This document shows positions 2,400-58,980 of a stretch of 64,000 nt of DNA, piece by piece (positions within the stretch are counted from its first letter, which is position 1; the number at the start of each line of letters is the position of its first letter). Source of the stretch: Octopus sinensis (taxonomy: Eukaryota); NCBI RefSeq assembly GCF_006345805.1, contig NC_043006.1, positions 67,084,001-67,148,000 on the forward strand, read 5' to 3'. The position numbers and the translations under genes were made by a program. A model generated the notes under the pieces. The model had not been told where the DNA came from and ran no database searches. It was given only the letters and a program-made list of their open reading frames with translations.

Positions 2400-3397
2400 T
2401 TAACAGCAAAATCTTACACGTCTGAAAGATGAAAAGGTGGCAACTATGTGTGTAACCGATAAACCCCGTTCTGGCCGTCCGTCCGCTTCTGTGAATCCTG
2501 CCAATAAAGCAAAAGCAGATGTTCTGATTAGAGAAGACAGATGAGTTGGCAGAAAATCTCGAAGTGAGCCATGGAAGTGCTTACAACATTGTCGGATCAC
2601 TTGGCTTTTCAAAAGTGTATGCCCGTTGGGTACCGAGAGAGCTGACTACCGAATGCAAGACTGACAGGGTCATCGCCTGCACTGAACTTCTCGAACAAAG
2701 TCAAAGAGACAACACCTTCTTCCGAATGCTCGTAATGGGTGATGAAACATGGATTCATCATTATGAACTGGAATCAAAGCGGCAGTCAATGGAATGGCGC
2801 CACTTTACGTCACCATCACCGAAAAAGTTCAAGACTCAAAAGTCAGCTGGAAAAATCTCTTGGGATGCTCAAGGTGTCATTCTGTTCGATTTTTTACCAA
2901 AAAGGGAAAACAATAAAGTTTGAGGCCTACATTGAGATCCTGACGAGGCTCAGAGCAAGAATCCGACGTGTAAGACCCAACTTGCCAATTGACAGTGACA
3001 ATGCTCGACCACACACAAACATCAGGACAAGGGAGACAACATTCGGGTGGACAACATTACCGCATCGTCCATACTCACCAGATTTAGCGCCTTCAGGCTA
3101 TCATCCCTTGAGCCCCATGAAAGAGGGTTTGAGAGGTGAACATTATTCCAGTGACGAGGAAGTGAAAACTGTAGTGAAGAAGTGGCTCAAAGAACAGTCA
3201 ACAGAATTTTACGGGCAGGGATACATGCTCTAATTCGAAGGTAGAACATTGCTATTGAGAGAAACGGGGACTATGTTGAGAAGTAGAGAAGTGATCCACA
3301 GAGGACCAGCTTTATTTTGATGTATGATACATGTTCCAGTGGTGGTAATTATACCTGTCCTAAACAAAATGGCATTACTTTTTGACTCACCCTCGTA
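2400..3397 (+). mobile_element. mariner (DD34D) transposase pseudogene with 3' TIR, 5' end missing
   Basis: Motifs PRSGRP, WVPREL, MGDETWIHHY...SMEW, DNARPH and PYSPDLAPSGYH (third D changed to G), with frameshifts. Ends in TIR ATTACTTTTTGACTCACCCTCG+TA (3397). Confidence 0.92.
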
Positions 3398-8075: not shown

Positions 8076-8290
8076 GTCCTTATTACACAAAATTCTATGT
8101 GGATTGACAAACAAAATATTAAGTACTCAATACACCATATTCTGCGATTAATTATGATTCAGTCCTGTTTTTCTCTTGAATGGCGATTATATTCTATTAT
8201 TTAGGTGTTCTTCATCTGTTGAGATATGTTGACAATTTGCGTCTAAGCATGCGCAAGGTGAAATGTCAATAATTTAGGACGTCAGGCTAA

Positions 8291-9047
8291 GGTGGCGAGC
8301 TGGCAGAAACCTTAGCACGCCGGGCGAAATGCTTAGCGGTATTTCGTCTGCCGGTACCTTCTGAGTTCAAATTCTGCCGAAGTCGACTTTGCCTTTCATC
8401 CTTTCGGGATCGATAAATTAAGTACCAGTTACGCACTGGGGTCGATATAATTGACTTAATCCGTTTGTCCTCTCTGTGTTTTAGCCCTTTGTGGGTAGTA
8501 AAGAAATAGGTATTTCGTCTACCGCTACGTTCTGAGTTCAAATTCCGCCGAGGTCGACTTTTCCTTTCGTCCTTTCGGGGTCGATAAACCAAGTACCAGT
8601 TACGCTCTGAGGTCGATGTAATCGACTTAATCCCTTTGGCTGTCCTTGTTTGTTCCCTCTATGTTTAGTTCCCTGTGGGCAATAACCAAATAGGTATTTC
8701 GTCTGCCGTTACACTCTGAGTTCAAATTCCGCCGAGGTCGACTTTGCCTTTCATCCTTTCAGGTTCGATTAAGTAAGTACCAGTTACGCACTGGGGTCGA
8801 GATGATCGACTTAATCTCTTTGTCCTTGTTTGTCCCCTCTATGTTTAGTCCCCTGTGGGCAATAAAGAAATAAGAAACGTTAGCACGCCTGTATTTACGT
8901 TCTGAGTACAAATTCCGCCGAGGTCGACTTTGCCTTTCATCCTTCCAGGTTCGATGAATTAAGTACCAGTTACGTACTGGAGTCGATCTGATCGACTGCC
9001 CACCCACCCCCAAAAATGGGGCCTCGTGCCTTGAAGAGAAACGAATA
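8291..9047 (+). mobile_element. Tetrameric array of SINE family B inside one 16-bp TSD
   Basis: Single head GGCGAGCTGGCAGAAAC..., followed by four GAGTTCAAATTCCGCCGAGGTCGACTTTGCCTTTCATCC...AGTACCAG units with junctions at ~8508, ~8692 and ~8872. TSD TAGGACGTCRGGCTAA at 8275-8290 and 9048-9063. Confidence 0.9.
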
Positions 9048-9149
9048 TAGGACGTCGGGCTAATGTTTCACCGCATCCATGTACTCATGAATATACAGAT
9101 CAACAGCAAAGTTTTTATGCTCTTAACCTGGCTCCTTGTATATTTGATT

Positions 9150-12439: not shown

Positions 12440-13445
<1,006 letters not shown>

Positions 13446-14571: not shown

Positions 14572-14574
<3 letters not shown>

Positions 14575-16786
14575 GTTTCTTTATTGGCCACACAGGGCTG
14601 CACACACATGGGACAAGTTACAAGGTAGAGATTTTCTGTTGGGGGATGAAAAAAAAAAGAATTTAAAAAAAGGGTGGCGTAGGTTTTCGATCAAAAGGGA
14701 TCGTAAAAGGGAAAAAAGAACAAAAAAAAAGGAAAAGAAAATAAGAAAAAAGGGAAAAGGAACAAAGGAAGAGAAAAATGAAAAAAGAAGAAAAAGAGGA
14801 AAAAAGGGGGGAAGAGGAAAAGAAAACGATCAATAGGGATCGTGTATCACAGTGTCATGATGTATGGTGTAAAGGGGAAAGCAAGTAAGGTTTATCCGTG
14901 GGAAGAAAAGCCTACGAAATAGACCATCCTTGTTACATCCTTGCCATCCACGTGCCATCCTTGCTACATTCACCCATCTTTTTTTAAAACATTCGCTAGA
15001 CAAAACTTGCCTTTCTACTCTCACTTTCCTTTTCAAGTGGTACTTGAAGAAGTTGATGAGAGGGTGATCAGAGAGGAAGGTGTTTGTTTCCAATCCTTTC
15101 AGGCGCGTCCACCAGATACATTCTTTCGCCATAGCCACAAGGATGATGAAAATAGCTCTTCCTTCCCGTTTGAAGGAAGGAGGCGTGACAATATTGACGA
15201 TAGACTCAGCTACTAAACCGACTCGTCCCACACGTGACAGCAGTTGTTCGACATAAGCCCACAGGTCGGAAATTGTTGCACACTGCACGGGTACGTGCAG
15301 AACGGTTTCGTCGCTCTGACCATATCTCGGGCAGGTCGGCCCCGTGTTTCTCGAGCCGTGTCTGTAGAGCTTATCCCGAACGGGTAGCGCTTCTCGGTAC
15401 CACTGCCAGGCCAGGGATCTCTGGAAGTTGTCCATGGGCCCTGGCCCGAAAGTCGTCCCGAACAGGCGGGTCAGGTATTCCTCGTCGACGTCCAGTTTCG
15501 CCCCGAGCTCGTCGTCGTACCTCCCCTCCACTAATCCCCTATAGAATGCTTTGGTTGTGATGGAGTCACTCAAGGTTGACCCAGGACGGCAGAGTTGCTT
15601 GAGAGCAACGCGACACTCGCGGTGCCATTCGCCCTTCCTCGCCCTTTTTTTAATCCACGATTGCAGTTCGGTCATGGAGACGAGCCTCACAAACGGCGAC
15701 CACACCTGTTCACCGTCGTCTACGAAAAGCCTGAGATGTTGCAGTCTCAGCGCGTGTCTGCGCATCATCAACCACGGCATGCCCAGTCCTCCTGTTAACG
15801 GGTGTTGACAGCAAATGGATCACCTGACCATCGGGACACATCCTTTCCACAAGAAGCAAAAGAGAATGCGTTCTAGTTTGGTGATGTTAGGGTTGGGACA
15901 AGGCACGACGGTCAGGCAGTAATAGATGACGGACGCGATGTACGTGTTCGCCACCTCCGCCCGACCTTTTAGGGACAGTTTCCTTCGGCCCATTGCCGGC
16001 GAGAGAGACCACCCTACTCGTTATCTCGTTCCAGTTCTTCTCCATTTGGAGGTCCGAACCGAACCAGACCCCGAGCAACTCGACTGGACCGTCGATCCAG
16101 CGTCCCACAACGGAGGCGCTGGTGGACGGCATGGGCTTGCTTCTCCAGGTGCCTAGTCGCAAACCCACTGACTTTTCCAGGTTGATTTTTGCTCCTGTCA
16201 CCGCTTCGTAGTTTTTCAGTGTTTGCCGACCTGCTCGATGTGCTCGTGGCTAGACACTATGACGGTGACGTCGTCCGCGTATGCAGACACGCTCGTCCCG
16301 CATCCCAGTTCTCGCGGGATGCCCTTCAGAGTCGCCAGCTTCCGCAGTAGTGGCTCGAGAGTCAATACGTATAGAAGCGACGAGAGGGGGCATCCCTGAC
16401 GGACTGAACGTGCGATGTTCTAAGGTCTCGATAGATGTCCATTTACGCGAATTACCGAACGGATGCCTCTGTACAAAGCGGCTATCCAGCCGCGGAAGAC
16501 GGGACCGAAACCAGCCGCTCTGAGGACTGCCTCCAAGTATCGATGGTCTACCCTATCGAAAGTTTTCGATTGATCCAAATTGATCAGCGCCCCACCCATG
16601 CCAGGTTCGTTAACTACCCTGTCTATGATGTAGCGCATCAGGTGGAGGTTGTCATGGATGGTCCGGCCCGGCACGGCGTACGTTTGCGCCTTGTCGACCA
16701 GTTTCTCGATGACAAGCGCCAACCTCTTGGCTAACACCTTGGCCAAAATTTTCAAGTCTGCATTAAGCAGAGTGATGGTTGTTCCT
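14572..16786 (-). mobile_element. 5'-truncated L1/Tx1-clade LINE: RT domain, C-terminal Cys region and 3' UTR (frameshifted)
   Basis: ITLLNADLKILAKVLAKRL, LDQSKTFDRVDH, SVRQGCPLSSLLY, AYADDVT (16268-16285), GAKINLEKS, TCPR.GQSDETVLH...C. The 3' end AATAAAGAAACTT joins (ATCT)n. Confidence 0.92.
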
Positions 16787-16795
16787 AAATCTCTC

Positions 16796-17321
<526 letters not shown>

Positions 17322-17725: not shown

Positions 17726-18050
17726 GTGGATGGATGGTCATTATCACGTGACGGTATGAACTCTATTCCAACTGACAATATCTCATGAAGTCGATTTGGT
17801 GCCGATTTTTGTATTCGTTTGGTGATGTCATCAAAGGAAACCCCTAGACTATATGATCTAATGCGTCGTCAAATGTATCACTTAGAGGCATTTCGTCTGC
17901 CGTTACGTTCTGAGTTCAAATTCCGTAAAGGTTGACTTTGCCTTCCATTTTTCGAGGTCGATAAATTAAGTGCCATTTGCTTACTGGGGTCGATCTAATC
18001 GACTCATGCCGCCCTTCAAAATGGCTGCCCGTGTGACAAAATTTGAAATC
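17430..18050 (+). mobile_element. SINE family B split by two templated insertions
   Basis: Head GTTGCGAGTTGGCAGAATCGTTAGCA at 17431-17456. The body resumes at 17881 (CTTAGAGGCATTTCGTCTGCC) and ends in (ATT)n. Confidence 0.8.
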
Positions 18051-22965: not shown

Positions 22966-23047
<82 letters not shown>

Positions 23048-23049
<2 letters not shown>

Positions 23050-23200
23050 TCGCCTATCGCTACGTTCTGAGTTCAAATTCCGCCGAGGTCGACTATGCCT
23101 TTCATCCTTTCGGAGTCGATAAATTAAGTACCAGTGAAACACTGGGGTCGGTGTAATCGGCTAATCCCCACCTCCCCCAAGCTGCCCTTGTGGCAAAAAA
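23048..23200 (+). mobile_element. SINE family B (5'-truncated) in (ATT)n
   Basis: TTTCGCC...GAGTTCAAATTCCGCCGAGGTCGAC...AGTACCAG. Confidence 0.8.
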
Positions 23201-24797: not shown

Positions 24798-24804
24798 TAA
24801 TAAT

Positions 24805-25005
24805 AATCCTTTCTACTAAAGGCGCAAGGCCCGAAACATTTTGTGAGAGAGGGCAAGTCGATTACATCGACCTTAGTGTTTCACTGGTACCTCATTTATC
24901 GACCCCGAAAGGATGAAAGGCAGAATTTGAACTCAGAATGTAAAGACGGGCGAAAGGCTGCTAAGTATTTCATTCAGCGTGTTAACGATTCTGCCCGTCG
25001 CCGCC
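24805..25005 (-). mobile_element. SINE family B with (ATT)n-type tail; tail stub repeated at 25098-25135
   Basis: Reverse complement of the family B body. TAATCCTTTCTACTAAAGGCGCAAGGCCCGAAACATT occurs twice. Confidence 0.8.
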
Positions 25006-25050
25006 TTGATTATGATGATGATAATAAAAAGAATAGTAATAATAATAATA

Positions 25051-25092
<42 letters not shown>

Positions 25093-25148
25093 TAATAATA
25101 ATCCTTTCTACTAAAGGCGCAAGGCCCGAAACATTATTAATAATAATA

Positions 25149-25590
25149 GATGCCCTGGTGCAGTACCAGGCAGTGGCTTCTGATCTTAACTGATTGGAAG
25201 TGTTATCGTGTATATTGTTTTGTCTTGGTATAAAAGATGAGCTATAGCAAATATTCTGCTCAATACCACAGATTTGCTTGTCAGTGTTGGGAGGGATTCT
25301 TTGGGGTTTGAATAATGCATCTCTGGAAACATGGGTGTTTCGTTCAACATCCTTAAACAACTCTTATTTAGGGACCTTTGGAGCGGGATGGGTTACTCGG
25401 CCAGAAGAAAATTCTAACTTGGCCCCCACCTGCAAGGTCATGTGCTATGGGATCACCATATCGCGCAAATATGGTTGTGATGCATGTGCCTAGAGTACCC
25501 TTATCAGACAGGTAGTCGTGATGTGTATACTGAACTTCGTATATATTACCCCAGTGTCACTTTGATGGCATGCACTGCTCTCCGACTCAA
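25149..25590 (+). mobile_element. Unclassified retroposon-like insert within (TAA)n
   Basis: Complex 440-bp block bounded on both sides by TAA repeats, ending CTCTCCGACTC(AAT)n. Confidence 0.45.
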
Positions 25591-31498: not shown

Positions 31499-31598
31499 NN
31501 NNNNNNNNNNNNNNNNNNNNNNNNNNNNNNNNNNNNNNNNNNNNNNNNNNNNNNNNNNNNNNNNNNNNNNNNNNNNNNNNNNNNNNNNNNNNNNNNNN
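31499..31598. other. Assembly gap (100 N)
   Basis: Run of N. Confidence 1.
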
Positions 31599-34953: not shown

Positions 34954-37342
34954 AGAATCAGGTGGGCGGCCTACCATTCGATACCGGAGAGGAGAAAAGC
35001 AACCCCAACTCTAACCAAGAAGAAAAATAGCACACAGGAAGATATTAAAAGCAGAAGAAACCACCTCTAAATACGCACTGGAAATTTTGAAAAAGACTTA
35101 ATCGACCTCATTACCAACATCAACATTAGTAAACATAAGACCATTTCCAACACCCACTTAAGGAGCCTTAAAGATTTCCTGCTTTCACTTAGGAACCGAT
35201 AGTCTTATCATACCCGCCGACAAGACTGGGAACTGGTATAGGCTAGACTACCAAACCTACAAATCGCTCATCATGAGGGAACTTAGCAAAAAGTATAAAA
35301 CTACTTCTACGGATAACCTTAAGGAAATAACTACAAATCAAGGAAGTTATGAGCAAATTAGACCTCCTGGACAGAACAGAACCTATTAAACCACAAGTAC
35401 CCAAAATTACTATTAAAGACCATAAGAAAGACTTCCCAGATAGTGTAGGAGTACGATTAATCTGTCCGACTAAATCGGATATCGGCAGACTTAGCAAGAC
35501 CATCCTGGACAGGGTGATCCCACACATCAACCCCACATCCCACTCCAACTATGGATTAACACCAACGATGTGCTAGAATGGTTTAACACTATCACCAATA
35601 GGCACGACTACTCATTCATCCAATTCGACATAGCTAGCTACTACGCCAGTATATCCCCCATCTTACTTAACAAATCCCTTATTTTTGCCCGCAACCTTTC
35701 ACTCATAGACAGAGAAAAAATTGACATAATTCTATTAGATAGAAAACATAATAGAATTCGACGGTAGACTCTGGACCAGATCCGATACCCCCGACAATTT
35801 CAATGTGGCTATGGGCTCGAGCGATTCAGCTCAGGTGACTGACTTGGTCGGGGCCTACCTGCTCAAGAAGCTTTTCTCCGAGGTACCGGATCTTCAGGGG
35901 GGTCTATACAGAGACGACGCTCTCTCATATACCCCACCAACAATAGGAGTAAACTAGAAAGAATTAGGAAAAAGATCAGGCTTTTTTTCAAAGCTTCAAT
36001 CTTAAACTAGAATTTATGACCAATACTAAAATAGTAAACTTCTTAGATGTTACGTTAGATTTGAATAAGCACCTTCACTACCCGTATAGGAAACCAGAAG
36101 AAACTACCAAATACATCCATACCTCTTCCACCATCCACCCTGTATAATTAGCACCACGGTCCAAGCCATCTCAGACAGACTGACAAAACTATCCTCTAAT
36201 AGAGAAATTTTCAATAATCATGCACAACACTACAACCAGGCTCTCTATAGTGCCGGGTATAACCAGAGAATATCATATGTAGACCACCCGGGAGCGTTCG
36301 TCGGCCATAAGACTCCCAATTATAATCGAACTCAGCACTCAACTCACACTAGCGATAATTCTAATTTAAACTCCAAACAACGTATAGGAAATAGGCGAAC
36401 TAATAGAACAGCACACAATAGTAACCCTCCCGACGAGAGCAATATAGATCCTATTAGGAGAAATAGAAGGGATAATAGTAGATTACGCAAATATATATGG
36501 TTCAACATACCTTTCAACTTAGCAGTTAGGGGTAAGTTATGTAAGAGAATATTCTCTATAATTTCCAACAACTTCCACCCACCCACAAGTATAGAAGTAT
36601 CTTCTCCAACAAAACTATTAGGATTTCCTACTCTACCCTGCCCAACATGAGCTGCCTCATAGCTAAACATAACTATATTAATATTAGAACAGCTAGATCA
36701 AGAGCAAACCATAGCGACCAACAGAACCCCCCTCATCCAGACAGTAGACAATATAACCAGACTGGCAGCCATACTACCCAAACAGTTAGTAATAACACCC
36801 GCCAACACAACAGAGGAAATACTACACCATCAACAACCAGGAGGATACCAACGCCCCCACTCGTATTGCAACACCTCCGCCTGGGATTAGCAGCACACGA
36901 CGACAATGCAATGCAATGCAACTGCAGATGTGCATCAGAGTGCCCGCTGCAGGGCGCATGTAGGGCGAAAAACGTAATATACTCATGTGAGGTGAGTACT
37001 CAGTTTAACACACTCACCTATATTGGTTGCTCAACCTCCTGGAAATCCAGATACTACAACCACCGGTCCTCGCTGAGACACAGACCTAAGGCTAACAGCA
37101 CCTCCCTCTCTAAAAGAATTTGGGAATTAAAAGACAAATGCATAGGCTTCAAACTCAGATGGTCCATCATCGGATCAGCTGCACCTTATTTAAATAATAG
37201 AGCAGGATGCCAACTATGCTGTGTAGAACTCCTTAACATCTTGAAATTCAAAGACAAACACAATCTTATTAACAAAAGGTCAGAGTTCAAACCATCCTGT
37301 ATACATAAACTTATTAATACTTTCAAATACTACAATGCTTAG
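34954..37342 (+). pseudogene. Penelope RT-GIY-YIG polyprotein, frameshifted and 5'-truncated
   Basis: KRIRWAAY, FEKDLIDLI, PADKTGN, KDHKKDF...RLICPTKSDIGRLSK, QFDIASYYASI, MGSSDSAQVTDLVG, YRDD (35907-35918), FLDVTLDL, CNCR...CPLQGAC, NVIYSCEV...YIGC...KSRYYNH, CQLCCVE, LINKRSE...CIH. Confidence 0.95.
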
Positions 37343-57503: not shown

Positions 57504-57714
57504 AAGGCGGCAAGTTGGAAGAAAGGTTTGCACGCCAGGCGAAATGCTTAGCGGTATTTCGTCTGCTGTTACGTTCTGAGTTCAAATTCCGCCGAGATCG
57601 ACTCTGCCTTTATCCTTTCGGGGTCGATAAATTAAGCACTAATTGCGTTCTAGGATCGATCTAATCGACTTTCCCCGTCCCCCAAAATTTCGGATATTGT
57701 GCCTACAGTAGAAA
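57504..57714 (+). mobile_element. SINE family B monomer
   Basis: GGCGAAATGCTTAGCGGTATTTCGTC...TTGTGCCTACAGTAGAAA. Confidence 0.85.
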
Positions 57715-58072
57715 ATTTAGTGGGAGGGGGTGCCAGTCGATTAGATAGATCCCCAGTACATAACTGGTACTTAGTTTATCTACCCCGAATAGATAAAAGG
57801 CAAAGCTGACCACGGCGGAATTTGAACTCAGAACGTAAAGAGAGACGAAGTACCAATTTCTTTACTACTCACAAGGGGCTAAACACAAAGAGAACAAACG
57901 GATTAAGTCGACTACATCGACCCCAGTGCGTAACTGGTACTTATTTAATCGACCCCAAAAGGATGAAAGGCAAAGTCGACCTCGGCGGAATTTGAACTCA
58001 GAACGTAACGGCAGACGAAATACTGCAAAGCATTTCGCACGTGGTGCTAACGAGTCTGTAAGCTCGCAACCA
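57715..58072 (-). mobile_element. SINE family B dimer (first unit with Tx1-type tail)
   Basis: Minus-strand junction GTAGTAAAGAAATTG|GTACTTCGTC at ~57855, equivalent to the junction at 8508. Confidence 0.85.
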
Positions 58073-58250
58073 TAAAATCGATTTGAATGTAATTATTGAA
58101 TACTTTGTATCTCTATCCTTCACCCTCTCTTTCCCTCTCCCTCTTTCTCCCTCTCTCTTTTCTCCTCCTTCCTCTTTTTCCCCTCTCCCTTTACGCTCTA
58201 AAATCTTTTTTGTTTAGTAAATAAGTAATTTCAGAGAATGGAATTTTTAA

Positions 58251-58603
58251 TTGACTGTTCTTTGAGCCACTTCTCCACTACAGTTTTTACTTCCGCGTCA
58301 CTGGAAGTTTGCCTCTCAAACCCTCTTTCATAGGGCCGATGAGATGATAGTCCAGTGACGAGGAAGTGAAAAAAGTAGTGAAGAAGTGGCTCAAAGAACA
58401 GTCAACAGAATTTTACGGAGCAGGTATACATGCTCTCATTCGAAAGTGGAACATTGATATTGAGAGAAACGATGACTATGTTGAGAAGTAGGGATGTGAT
58501 CCACAGATGACCAGCTTCATTTTGATGTATGATACATGTTCCTGTGGTGGTAATTATACCTGTCCTAAACAAAATGGCATTACTTTTTTGACTCACCCTC
58601 GTA
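58251..58603 (+). mobile_element. mariner 3' end (same family as 2400-3397) with an inverted duplicated segment
   Basis: 58351-58603 matches 3147-3397 including TIR+TA. 58251-58350 is the reverse complement of ~3098-3201. Confidence 0.9.
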
Positions 58604-58609
58604 TTATGA

Positions 58610-58980
58610 GAAGGGCGATCTATGGAGGAAATTGACCTCAACGAGTATAAGAACTTAGACATTCTGGAAACAGACCAAATGAAAGAATTGTTATAAAATG
58701 GATGTAAACGGAGACTGAAGTTAGTGTTAAAAAGATAGTTAAGTGTGGTGAAATAAGATGCTGACTGTCAATAAATGGGCCGTTGCAGCTCTGAGATATA
58801 GTGCTGGTGCGATACAGGGGTAAAATAATGATAGAAAGACAAGCAAAATGATGACACTCGAAGGAGCTCTACACCTCCATGTGACGTCGACAGGTTGTAT
58901 CTATCGCGACAAAAAGGAAGAAGTGGTTTCATCAGCTATGAAGTGTGTGTGAAATCTGCAGAAAATAATCTGTATTTGTC
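58610..58980 (+). mobile_element. Decayed R4/Dong-type RT fragment
   Basis: EYKNLDILE, LRYSAG, LHLHVTS/DVDRLYLSRQKGRSGFIS. Confidence 0.55.

Follow-up and report, generated by a model that had tools for sequence, protein, structure and literature searches.

An abundant tRNA-derived SINE of Octopus sinensis forms tandem arrays in which most units restart at one position of the SINE's own head, and we favour by a modest balance (probability roughly 0.55) the view that the Tx1-tailed subfamily of this SINE targets the head of its own family. The window analysed, 64,000 nucleotides of microsatellite-rich animal DNA, holds seven loci of the family: an array of four units, a dimer on the opposite strand, and five further loci, all of them carrying the other tail type. 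The base-by-base reading given here concerns the array and the dimer, two loci only, and alignments of public contigs supplied the genome-wide view.

The array (8289-9047, plus strand) is composed of four units of the tRNA-derived SINE with a repeat period of 184 bp, or 3.7 copies, and the positions of its parts are collected in Table 1. The earlier note had claimed that it possesses one head, one 16-bp TSD around the whole and a last unit of the other tail type, and all three held. Only unit 1 has the full head; the TSD copies match at 15 of 16 positions, which was equalled by 0 of 3000 random position pairs, and a search for a TSD around each individual unit found none; and unit 4, other-tailed, also lacks 27 nt internally (equivalent to 8322-8348). 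We infer that unit 4 was the original host copy of the array.

Table 1. Coordinates, in the numbering of the window, of the array, the dimer and associated features.
Feature	Position	Strand	Description
TSD, 5' copy	8275..8290	+	16 bp; 15/16 match to 9048-9063; overlaps first two head bases
Only full SINE head	8289..8337	+	head positions 1-49, tRNA-like; minor site between 8304 and 8305, main site between 8337 and 8338
Predicted head-RNA hairpin	8321..8350	+	13-bp; fold of 8315-8360: -19.4 kcal/mol, z -2.8
Unit 1	8338..8508	+	body 8338-8456 and short-variant LINE-derived tail 8457-8508
Unit 2	8509..8692	+	starts at head position 50; body and long-variant LINE-derived tail
Unit 3	8693..8872	+	starts at head position 50; body and long-variant LINE-derived tail, end AAAGAAATA
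Unit 4	8873..9047	+	starts at head position 17; old-subfamily letters, other tail type
TSD, 3' copy	9048..9063	+	pairs with 8275-8290
Broken L1/Tx1-type LINE	14574..16806	-	RT and zinc-binding remnants; 3' end homologous to SINE tail, on (TATC)n
D2, second unit of dimer	57710..57854	-	begins at head position 50; has the other tail type, split by an inverted SINE
D1, first unit of dimer	57855..58073	-	head (58073-58025) diverged and of old type, body (58024-57906) young, LINE-derived tail of the short variant

The start of the head is corroborated by the 5' ends of other copies, which, seen as loose ends of aligned contigs, pile up at 8288-8289. The head contains a motif that we take to be A-box-like (8301-8311), and the body of unit 1 one that we take to be B-box-like (8363-8374), both labels following the box consensus. 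ARAGORN called 0 tRNA genes, and a scan against Rfam returned 2 weak chance matches and neither a tRNA nor a ribozyme family. The element is short, non-coding and dispersed, with 158,328-334,552 contigs aligned per contig run. A spurious translated frame of the array gave one match, to a predicted Octopus bimaculoides protein (81% identity) that corresponds to a monomer without the junction, and the SINE is therefore of octopus type.

The sequence GGTATTTCGTC, which begins at 8338 in the native head, begins again at 8509 and 8693, so the junctions claimed after 8508 and 8692 are both as they had been written. The minus-strand junction at 57855, claimed to be the same, does fall at the same head position but differs by two substitutions, reading GAAATT joined to GGTACTTCGTC. 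The further claim of a single site applies to three of the four junctions, those at position 50, but not to the third junction of the array, which joins position 17; this junction is best placed between 8872 and 8873, and its tail end, AAAGAAATA, is as in the first junction. All four Tx1-tailed units share one tail end point, with two different head sites, and both sites read TRGC/RG (the slash marking the point of joining), a motif present only twice in the unit. The minor site, which lies within the A-box-like motif, ranks 1-2 of about 215 positions in its likeness to the main site when 6-8 bases are compared, but the rank drops to 3-11 at 10-12 bases and to 14-75 at 16-20, and the ranking describes one event with a comparison width picked after the fact. 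A microhomology deletion at the third junction was considered and rejected, given that both AGAAA copies are retained there.

The main junction base, 8338, is also the first base of the 3' arm of the predicted head hairpin, directly after its 4-nt loop, and the stability of that hairpin was reached by 3 of 200 shuffles. This position at the border of loop and 3' arm leaves an RNA-level origin of the junction open. The short palindrome at the junction was also considered as a structure, but shuffled sequences fold just as stably (z 0.6). Two 5'-truncated monomers on the plus strand, at 17881-18004 and 23046-23162, both start near the hairpin, at head positions of about 43 and 52, and the region is a possible truncation hot spot.

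Relatedness among the units is informative about local duplication. Units 1-3 are mutually 87-90% alike, and 90-91% alike to D1, the first unit of the dimer some distance away. The earlier note had named as a sign against insertion that units would be nearest to one another within the array; we looked for it and it is absent, and slippage duplication was rejected since the array units are no closer to one another than to the distant D1. Homogenisation within the array locus is likewise absent. A second such sign, clustering of units by position as expected from a shared master, is weakly present, in that the two first units, unit 1 and D1, share the minority short tail. The predicted younger 5' units do not stand out as an age ladder within the array, where the differences are too small. 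With its 4 subfamily-type letters set aside, unit 4 has 8 changes in 108 bases versus 7-9 in 119 for units 1-3, and thus it is not clearly older than they are; units 3 and 4 also have 3 derived letters in common. When bodies are pooled, those with the Tx1-type tail carry 29 changes in 476 bases and other-tailed ones 104 in 814, a difference that consists partly of subfamily letters.

The order of the tail types is the same in both arrays. Within the window every one of the four Tx1-tailed units continues into SINE sequence, an other-tailed unit closes both arrays, and none of the five other-tailed monomers is followed by a unit on the same strand. We rejected the idea that truncated units had inserted where an upstream unit's tail ends, given that the TSD comes after the tail belonging to the last unit itself and that the head of the dimer is of the old type.

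In D1 the head has 10 changes in 49 bases and the body 6 in 119 against the reference (p 0.007), and at non-CpG bases the contrast is 8/36 versus 4/96 (p 0.003), while the same test applied to three monomers gave no contrast (p 0.43-0.81). Unit 1 was the basis of the reference head, and the contrast is weaker in a pairwise comparison of D1 with unit 1, in which 38/49 head bases and 107/119 body bases are identical (p 0.047); an ungapped leave-one-out head count was excluded, the copy at 25007 being misregistered. D2 shows old-subfamily letters from the 13th-16th base past the junction, out of 119 homologous bases. The old head and young body of D1, together with this early switch in D2, fit a young unit having entered an old monomer, either at position 50 or immediately beyond it, and the letters support reading the dimer as a chimera of old-type head, young Tx1-tailed body and old-type last unit. 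The tail of D2 contains a full other-tailed SINE in inverted orientation (57504-57715, plus strand), with AAATTT at either side, indicating that nesting also occurs at sites outside the head. The tail and microsatellite of the SINE at 25007 recur upstream of its head as a long TSD-like repeat within another element (24800-25160, minus strand).

For the genome-wide view, four of 24 public runs were aligned, at a likeness of 80%, to unit 1 and a further 24 bases. Three were contig runs, under three species labels, with 334,552, 158,328 and 194,939 contigs aligned; the fourth, raw-read run X21, gave 13 aligned reads of 12.9 million, none over the tail, and was left out of all ratios. Summed depth over the 12 bases past the tail end, relative to the last 12 tail bases, was 0.66 in X1, 0.67 in X20 and 0.72 in X8, ratios that are biased upwards as junction contigs match over more bases, that leave some events uncounted, and that are drawn from depth, which is not copy number. 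Tandem-continuation joints, leading from 8517-8520 back to 8359-8362, make up 4 among the 15 joints listed, with 630 more in existence. The depth of the junction relative to the head was 0.41 in X1 and 0.44 in X20, but 0.02 in X8, and on the first two values the position-50 junction is a major feature of the SINE family. The repeated junction claimed from the window is therefore no accident of one locus, being abundant among the contigs under all three species labels.

At the array locus, flank contigs from both X20 and X8 enter the head, reaching 8316 and 8328, respectively. Given that both enter the head while the junction ratio of X8 is 0.02, the host copy is older than the greater part of the burst; it is common to all three labels, and the burst of tailed units took place mostly in two. 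The short tail variant accounts for ~6% of tail depth, and the long variant, as in units 2 and 3, is frequent across the genome, with 1475 loose ends in X1. A head variant, 8333 T>G with 8338 G>C, alters the main site; its share of depth is 13-16% in X1 and X20 and <1% in X8, and it may represent a target-escape subfamily whose rise accompanied the burst. In the three runs 11, 7 and 6 contigs show a head-to-head joint from 8288 to 8359, on opposite strands, and this joint may mark inverted insertions near the main site. Outside octopus, pattern scans gave 0 and 0 matches in viral contigs and 0 in GTDB genomes, and 2 metagenome matches were dismissed as chance, lying in unrelated AT-rich DNA.

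The SINE tail is homologous to four LINE-type 3' ends within the window, with a best alignment of 48/59 and one of 45/55 to the end of the RT-bearing LINE copy; of the 16 tail-to-end scores, 14 lie at least 4 points above the best of 300 shuffles, one lies 3 above it and one ties. By this homology, the broken LINE of Table 1 shows where the tail comes from. LINE remnants in the window carry PF03372, PF00078 and PF13966 (APE endonuclease, RT and zinc-binding domain), and the one with the APE endonuclease, separate from the broken copy, matches LINE-1 ORF2, which together place the tail donor in the L1 superfamily. ORF2 relatives measure 1087-1151 aa (5 matches, without family names), and the Atlas gave zf-RVT clusters only. 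The donor is likely of the Tx1 clade, as judged from microsatellite targeting and ORF2 lengths. The claim of a Tx1-type tail thus stands as regards homology to L1/Tx1-type 3' ends, with Tx1 rather than L1 as the likely clade.

All four homologous ends (12576, 14574, 46878 and 50834, minus strand) sit on TATC/TATT/CATC microsatellite. None of these four in the window lies in a SINE head, and no junction of LINE tail to head appears among the 20 loose ends listed, of which 1095 more exist; the true partner LINE may be a sister family of the LINEs in the window. Unrelated 3' ends at 13030-13380, 17730 and 27712 are also located on TATC-type microsatellite. At the 5' side of the broken LINE lies a 380-bp stretch (16824-17203), 72% self-complementary, that is perhaps a MITE. 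Elsewhere in the window, the look of the ORFs at 2528-3233 and 58200-58660 leads us to take them for Mariner-like transposase remnants, 36090-37342 is presumably a Penelope-type GIY-YIG remnant by its look, and an assembly gap of 100 N occupies 31499-31598.

Under the reading we prefer, the enzymes of a partner LINE would insert the L1/Tx1-tailed SINE into the heads of resident copies, mostly between positions 49 and 50. The endonuclease would nick at the short motif TRGC/RG, of which each head offers two, reverse transcription would begin at the tail end, possibly aided by pairing of read-through RNA with the target, and the 5' end would be joined to the host head by homology, in which case neither a new head nor a visible TSD is to be expected. 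The host A box would remain upstream and, with the B box of the new unit, rebuild a promoter and renew the target, each later copy thus going in on the 5' side of its predecessor. For the array this gives the order unit 4 first, with the TSD, then unit 3 at the minor site between positions 16 and 17, then units 2 and 1 between 49 and 50. Self-targeted insertion predicts the composition of both arrays: inner units Tx1-tailed, the last one other-tailed, one head and one outer TSD.

The earlier note had proposed self-targeted insertion by sequence-specific TPRT. The self-targeting gains from the genome-wide junction, the chimeric dimer, the absence of slippage and the use of one tail end at two TRGC/RG sites. 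Sequence-specific cleavage would be the proposed step; the window offers no partner LINE at the head site, and there all four homologous ends sit on microsatellite instead. A wider reading, which we advance tentatively and as somewhat less probable than the targeting itself, is that the SINE lives on its own family: a Tx1-type endonuclease would act at the A-box-like TRGC/RG, the new SINE would go in between the A box and the B box, old copies would be turned into growing arrays and, through a rebuilt Pol III promoter, into new sources, and the process would have gone through a burst in one octopus lineage (0.41-0.44 versus 0.02).

It was also reasonable to consider that the junction arose once or a few times, and that multimers have since been transcribed whole by Pol III and copied by way of the last unit's tail. 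We regard this as unlikely, although it stands first among the alternatives. A single TSD around the array, a nearly invariant junction and the minority short tail common to the two first units are what such masters would produce; the array holds few T4 terminators (2 runs, at 8479 and 8559), and unit 4 is not clearly older once its subfamily letters are removed. The two arrays, however, are unlike in their heads (38/49 identical), in the second unit, in the last junction and in the number of units, and a single transcript leaves the old head on the young body of D1 unexplained.

Slightly less probable again is growth at the DNA level, in which a monomer gains a 184-bp unit, and with it the donor's junction, from an array already present by non-allelic recombination or break repair, and unequal exchange or slippage extends the result. 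Such growth would need no targeted enzyme to account for the one head, the fixed junction, the old head and the other-tailed last unit, the anatomy is that of whiptail sSat3 units (PMC10702118), and the 3 derived letters shared by units 3 and 4 suggest that some local exchange did take place. Against it, the switch in the dimer falls at most 13 bases from the junction out of 119 homologous bases, which chance would give in about 1 case in 9, the units of the array are unhomogenised, and the position-17 junction requires a separate origin.

Assembly in one event at the RNA level, whether reverse transcriptase jumped end to end from the 3' halves of SINE RNA cut at the hairpin loop between positions 49 and 50 to the tails of other RNAs, or copied a circular unit RNA repeatedly, we consider improbable: the junction at the exact loop/3'-arm border of the predicted 13-bp hairpin, the nearby starts of both truncated monomers, the single TSD bracketing all units and the addition of 5' parts to SINEU by template switching (described in the accessible part of PMC4494074) speak for it, but it explains neither the Tx1-tailed inner and other-tailed last units of both arrays (2/2) nor the head/body break of D1, a rolling circle predicts identical units where the tail variants of unit 1 and units 2-3 differ, and no ribozyme family was matched. 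These alternatives and self-targeting do not exclude one another, as finished arrays may be copied whole or exchange sequence.

The nearest precedent for self-targeted insertion, as far as the accessible portions of the cited papers go, is found in crocodilians, where SINEU-3 and Tx1-Mar insert into a Mariner element, 313 of 347 SINEU-3 copies adjoin Mariner-N4_AMi, and sequential insertion is taken to account for SINEU-3 copies in tandem (PMC4494074). The likeness lies in a SINE probably moved by Tx1 enzymes, a target inside another repeat and the occurrence of tandem copies; by analogy, the octopus array system would work like a target-specific, Tx1-mobilised SINE. SINEU-3, however, has a different element as its target, a TSD between its tandem copies and snRNA heads, whereas the target in octopus would be the tRNA-derived head of the SINE's own family and the added units are headless. 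Target-specific Tx1 LINEs include Kibi and Koshi (microsatellites), Keno (U2), Mutsu (5S) and Dewa (tRNA spacer) (PMC4494074, PMC3706591), and as described there they belong to the superfamily of the tail donor, the LINE ends in the window lying on microsatellite like those of Kibi and Koshi. All five are nevertheless autonomous LINEs with host-gene or microsatellite targets, and the accessible text of these two papers names no SINE head as a target of Tx1 LINEs.

Short arrays of 4-5 units with an extended terminal unit are described, in what is accessible of that report, for sSat3Ati1/2 of whiptail lizards, whose unit comprises the end of a head, a whole body and a LINE-derived region in 179-215 nt (PMC10702118). 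These agree with the octopus arrays in unit anatomy, shortness and extended terminal unit, but are ascribed there to duplication, unequal recombination and homogenisation, whereas the octopus arrays have unhomogenised units, an other-tailed last unit and, in the dimer, an old head on a young body. The whiptail sSat3 arrays could share a self-targeting origin.

Two other systems are alike in single respects, going by the excerpts at hand. Insertion of R2Ol rises from 12% to 96-98% when read-through target sequence is present, and R2 in 28S rDNA resembles the proposed process in its fixed site within a multicopy transcribed target and in the aid given by read-through pairing (PMC6530143); it is unlike it in endonuclease type, in being autonomous and in that the target is not its own family. 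Dada transposons target the tRNA A box, TAGCTC (PMC3706591), and so also use an A-box sequence in a multicopy transcribed gene, but they are DNA transposons and again their target is not their own family.

In octopus, tRNA-derived SINEs go back to Ohshima and Okada 1994 (as cited in PMC4758252), mention is made of the classes tRNA-Core and tRNA-Deu (PMC8967140), and SINEs make up 11.6% of the O. vulgaris assembly, split over hundreds of unclassified families (PMC13282606); the SINE of the array, a very abundant one of tRNA type in an octopus-type genome, fits these accounts so far as their accessible text extends. Within that same extent, PMC13282606, PMC8967140, PMC4758252, PMC5786205, PMC3747384 and PMC3649969 do not describe such arrays, and a search of the supplement of PMC13282606 for a consensus sequence with the junction motif found none. 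Our literature search found no SINE that targets its own head and no such octopus arrays; a family name or a multimer consensus may be given in the octopus SINE paper of 1994, which, like most subscription papers, Repbase and Dfam, fell outside its scope.

If self-targeted insertion is the correct reading, it would represent an unusual mode of multiplication for a mobile element, a safe-haven strategy in which the target of a non-autonomous element is its own family and is renewed at each insertion. It would also provide a retrotransposition route from SINEs to satellite-like arrays, for which current accounts invoke DNA duplication. For annotation, chimeric arrays of this kind would bias the consensus sequences that are built as well as the ages estimated from them. 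Thousands of such arrays are to be expected in one octopus assembly, each of them recording the order in which its units were inserted.
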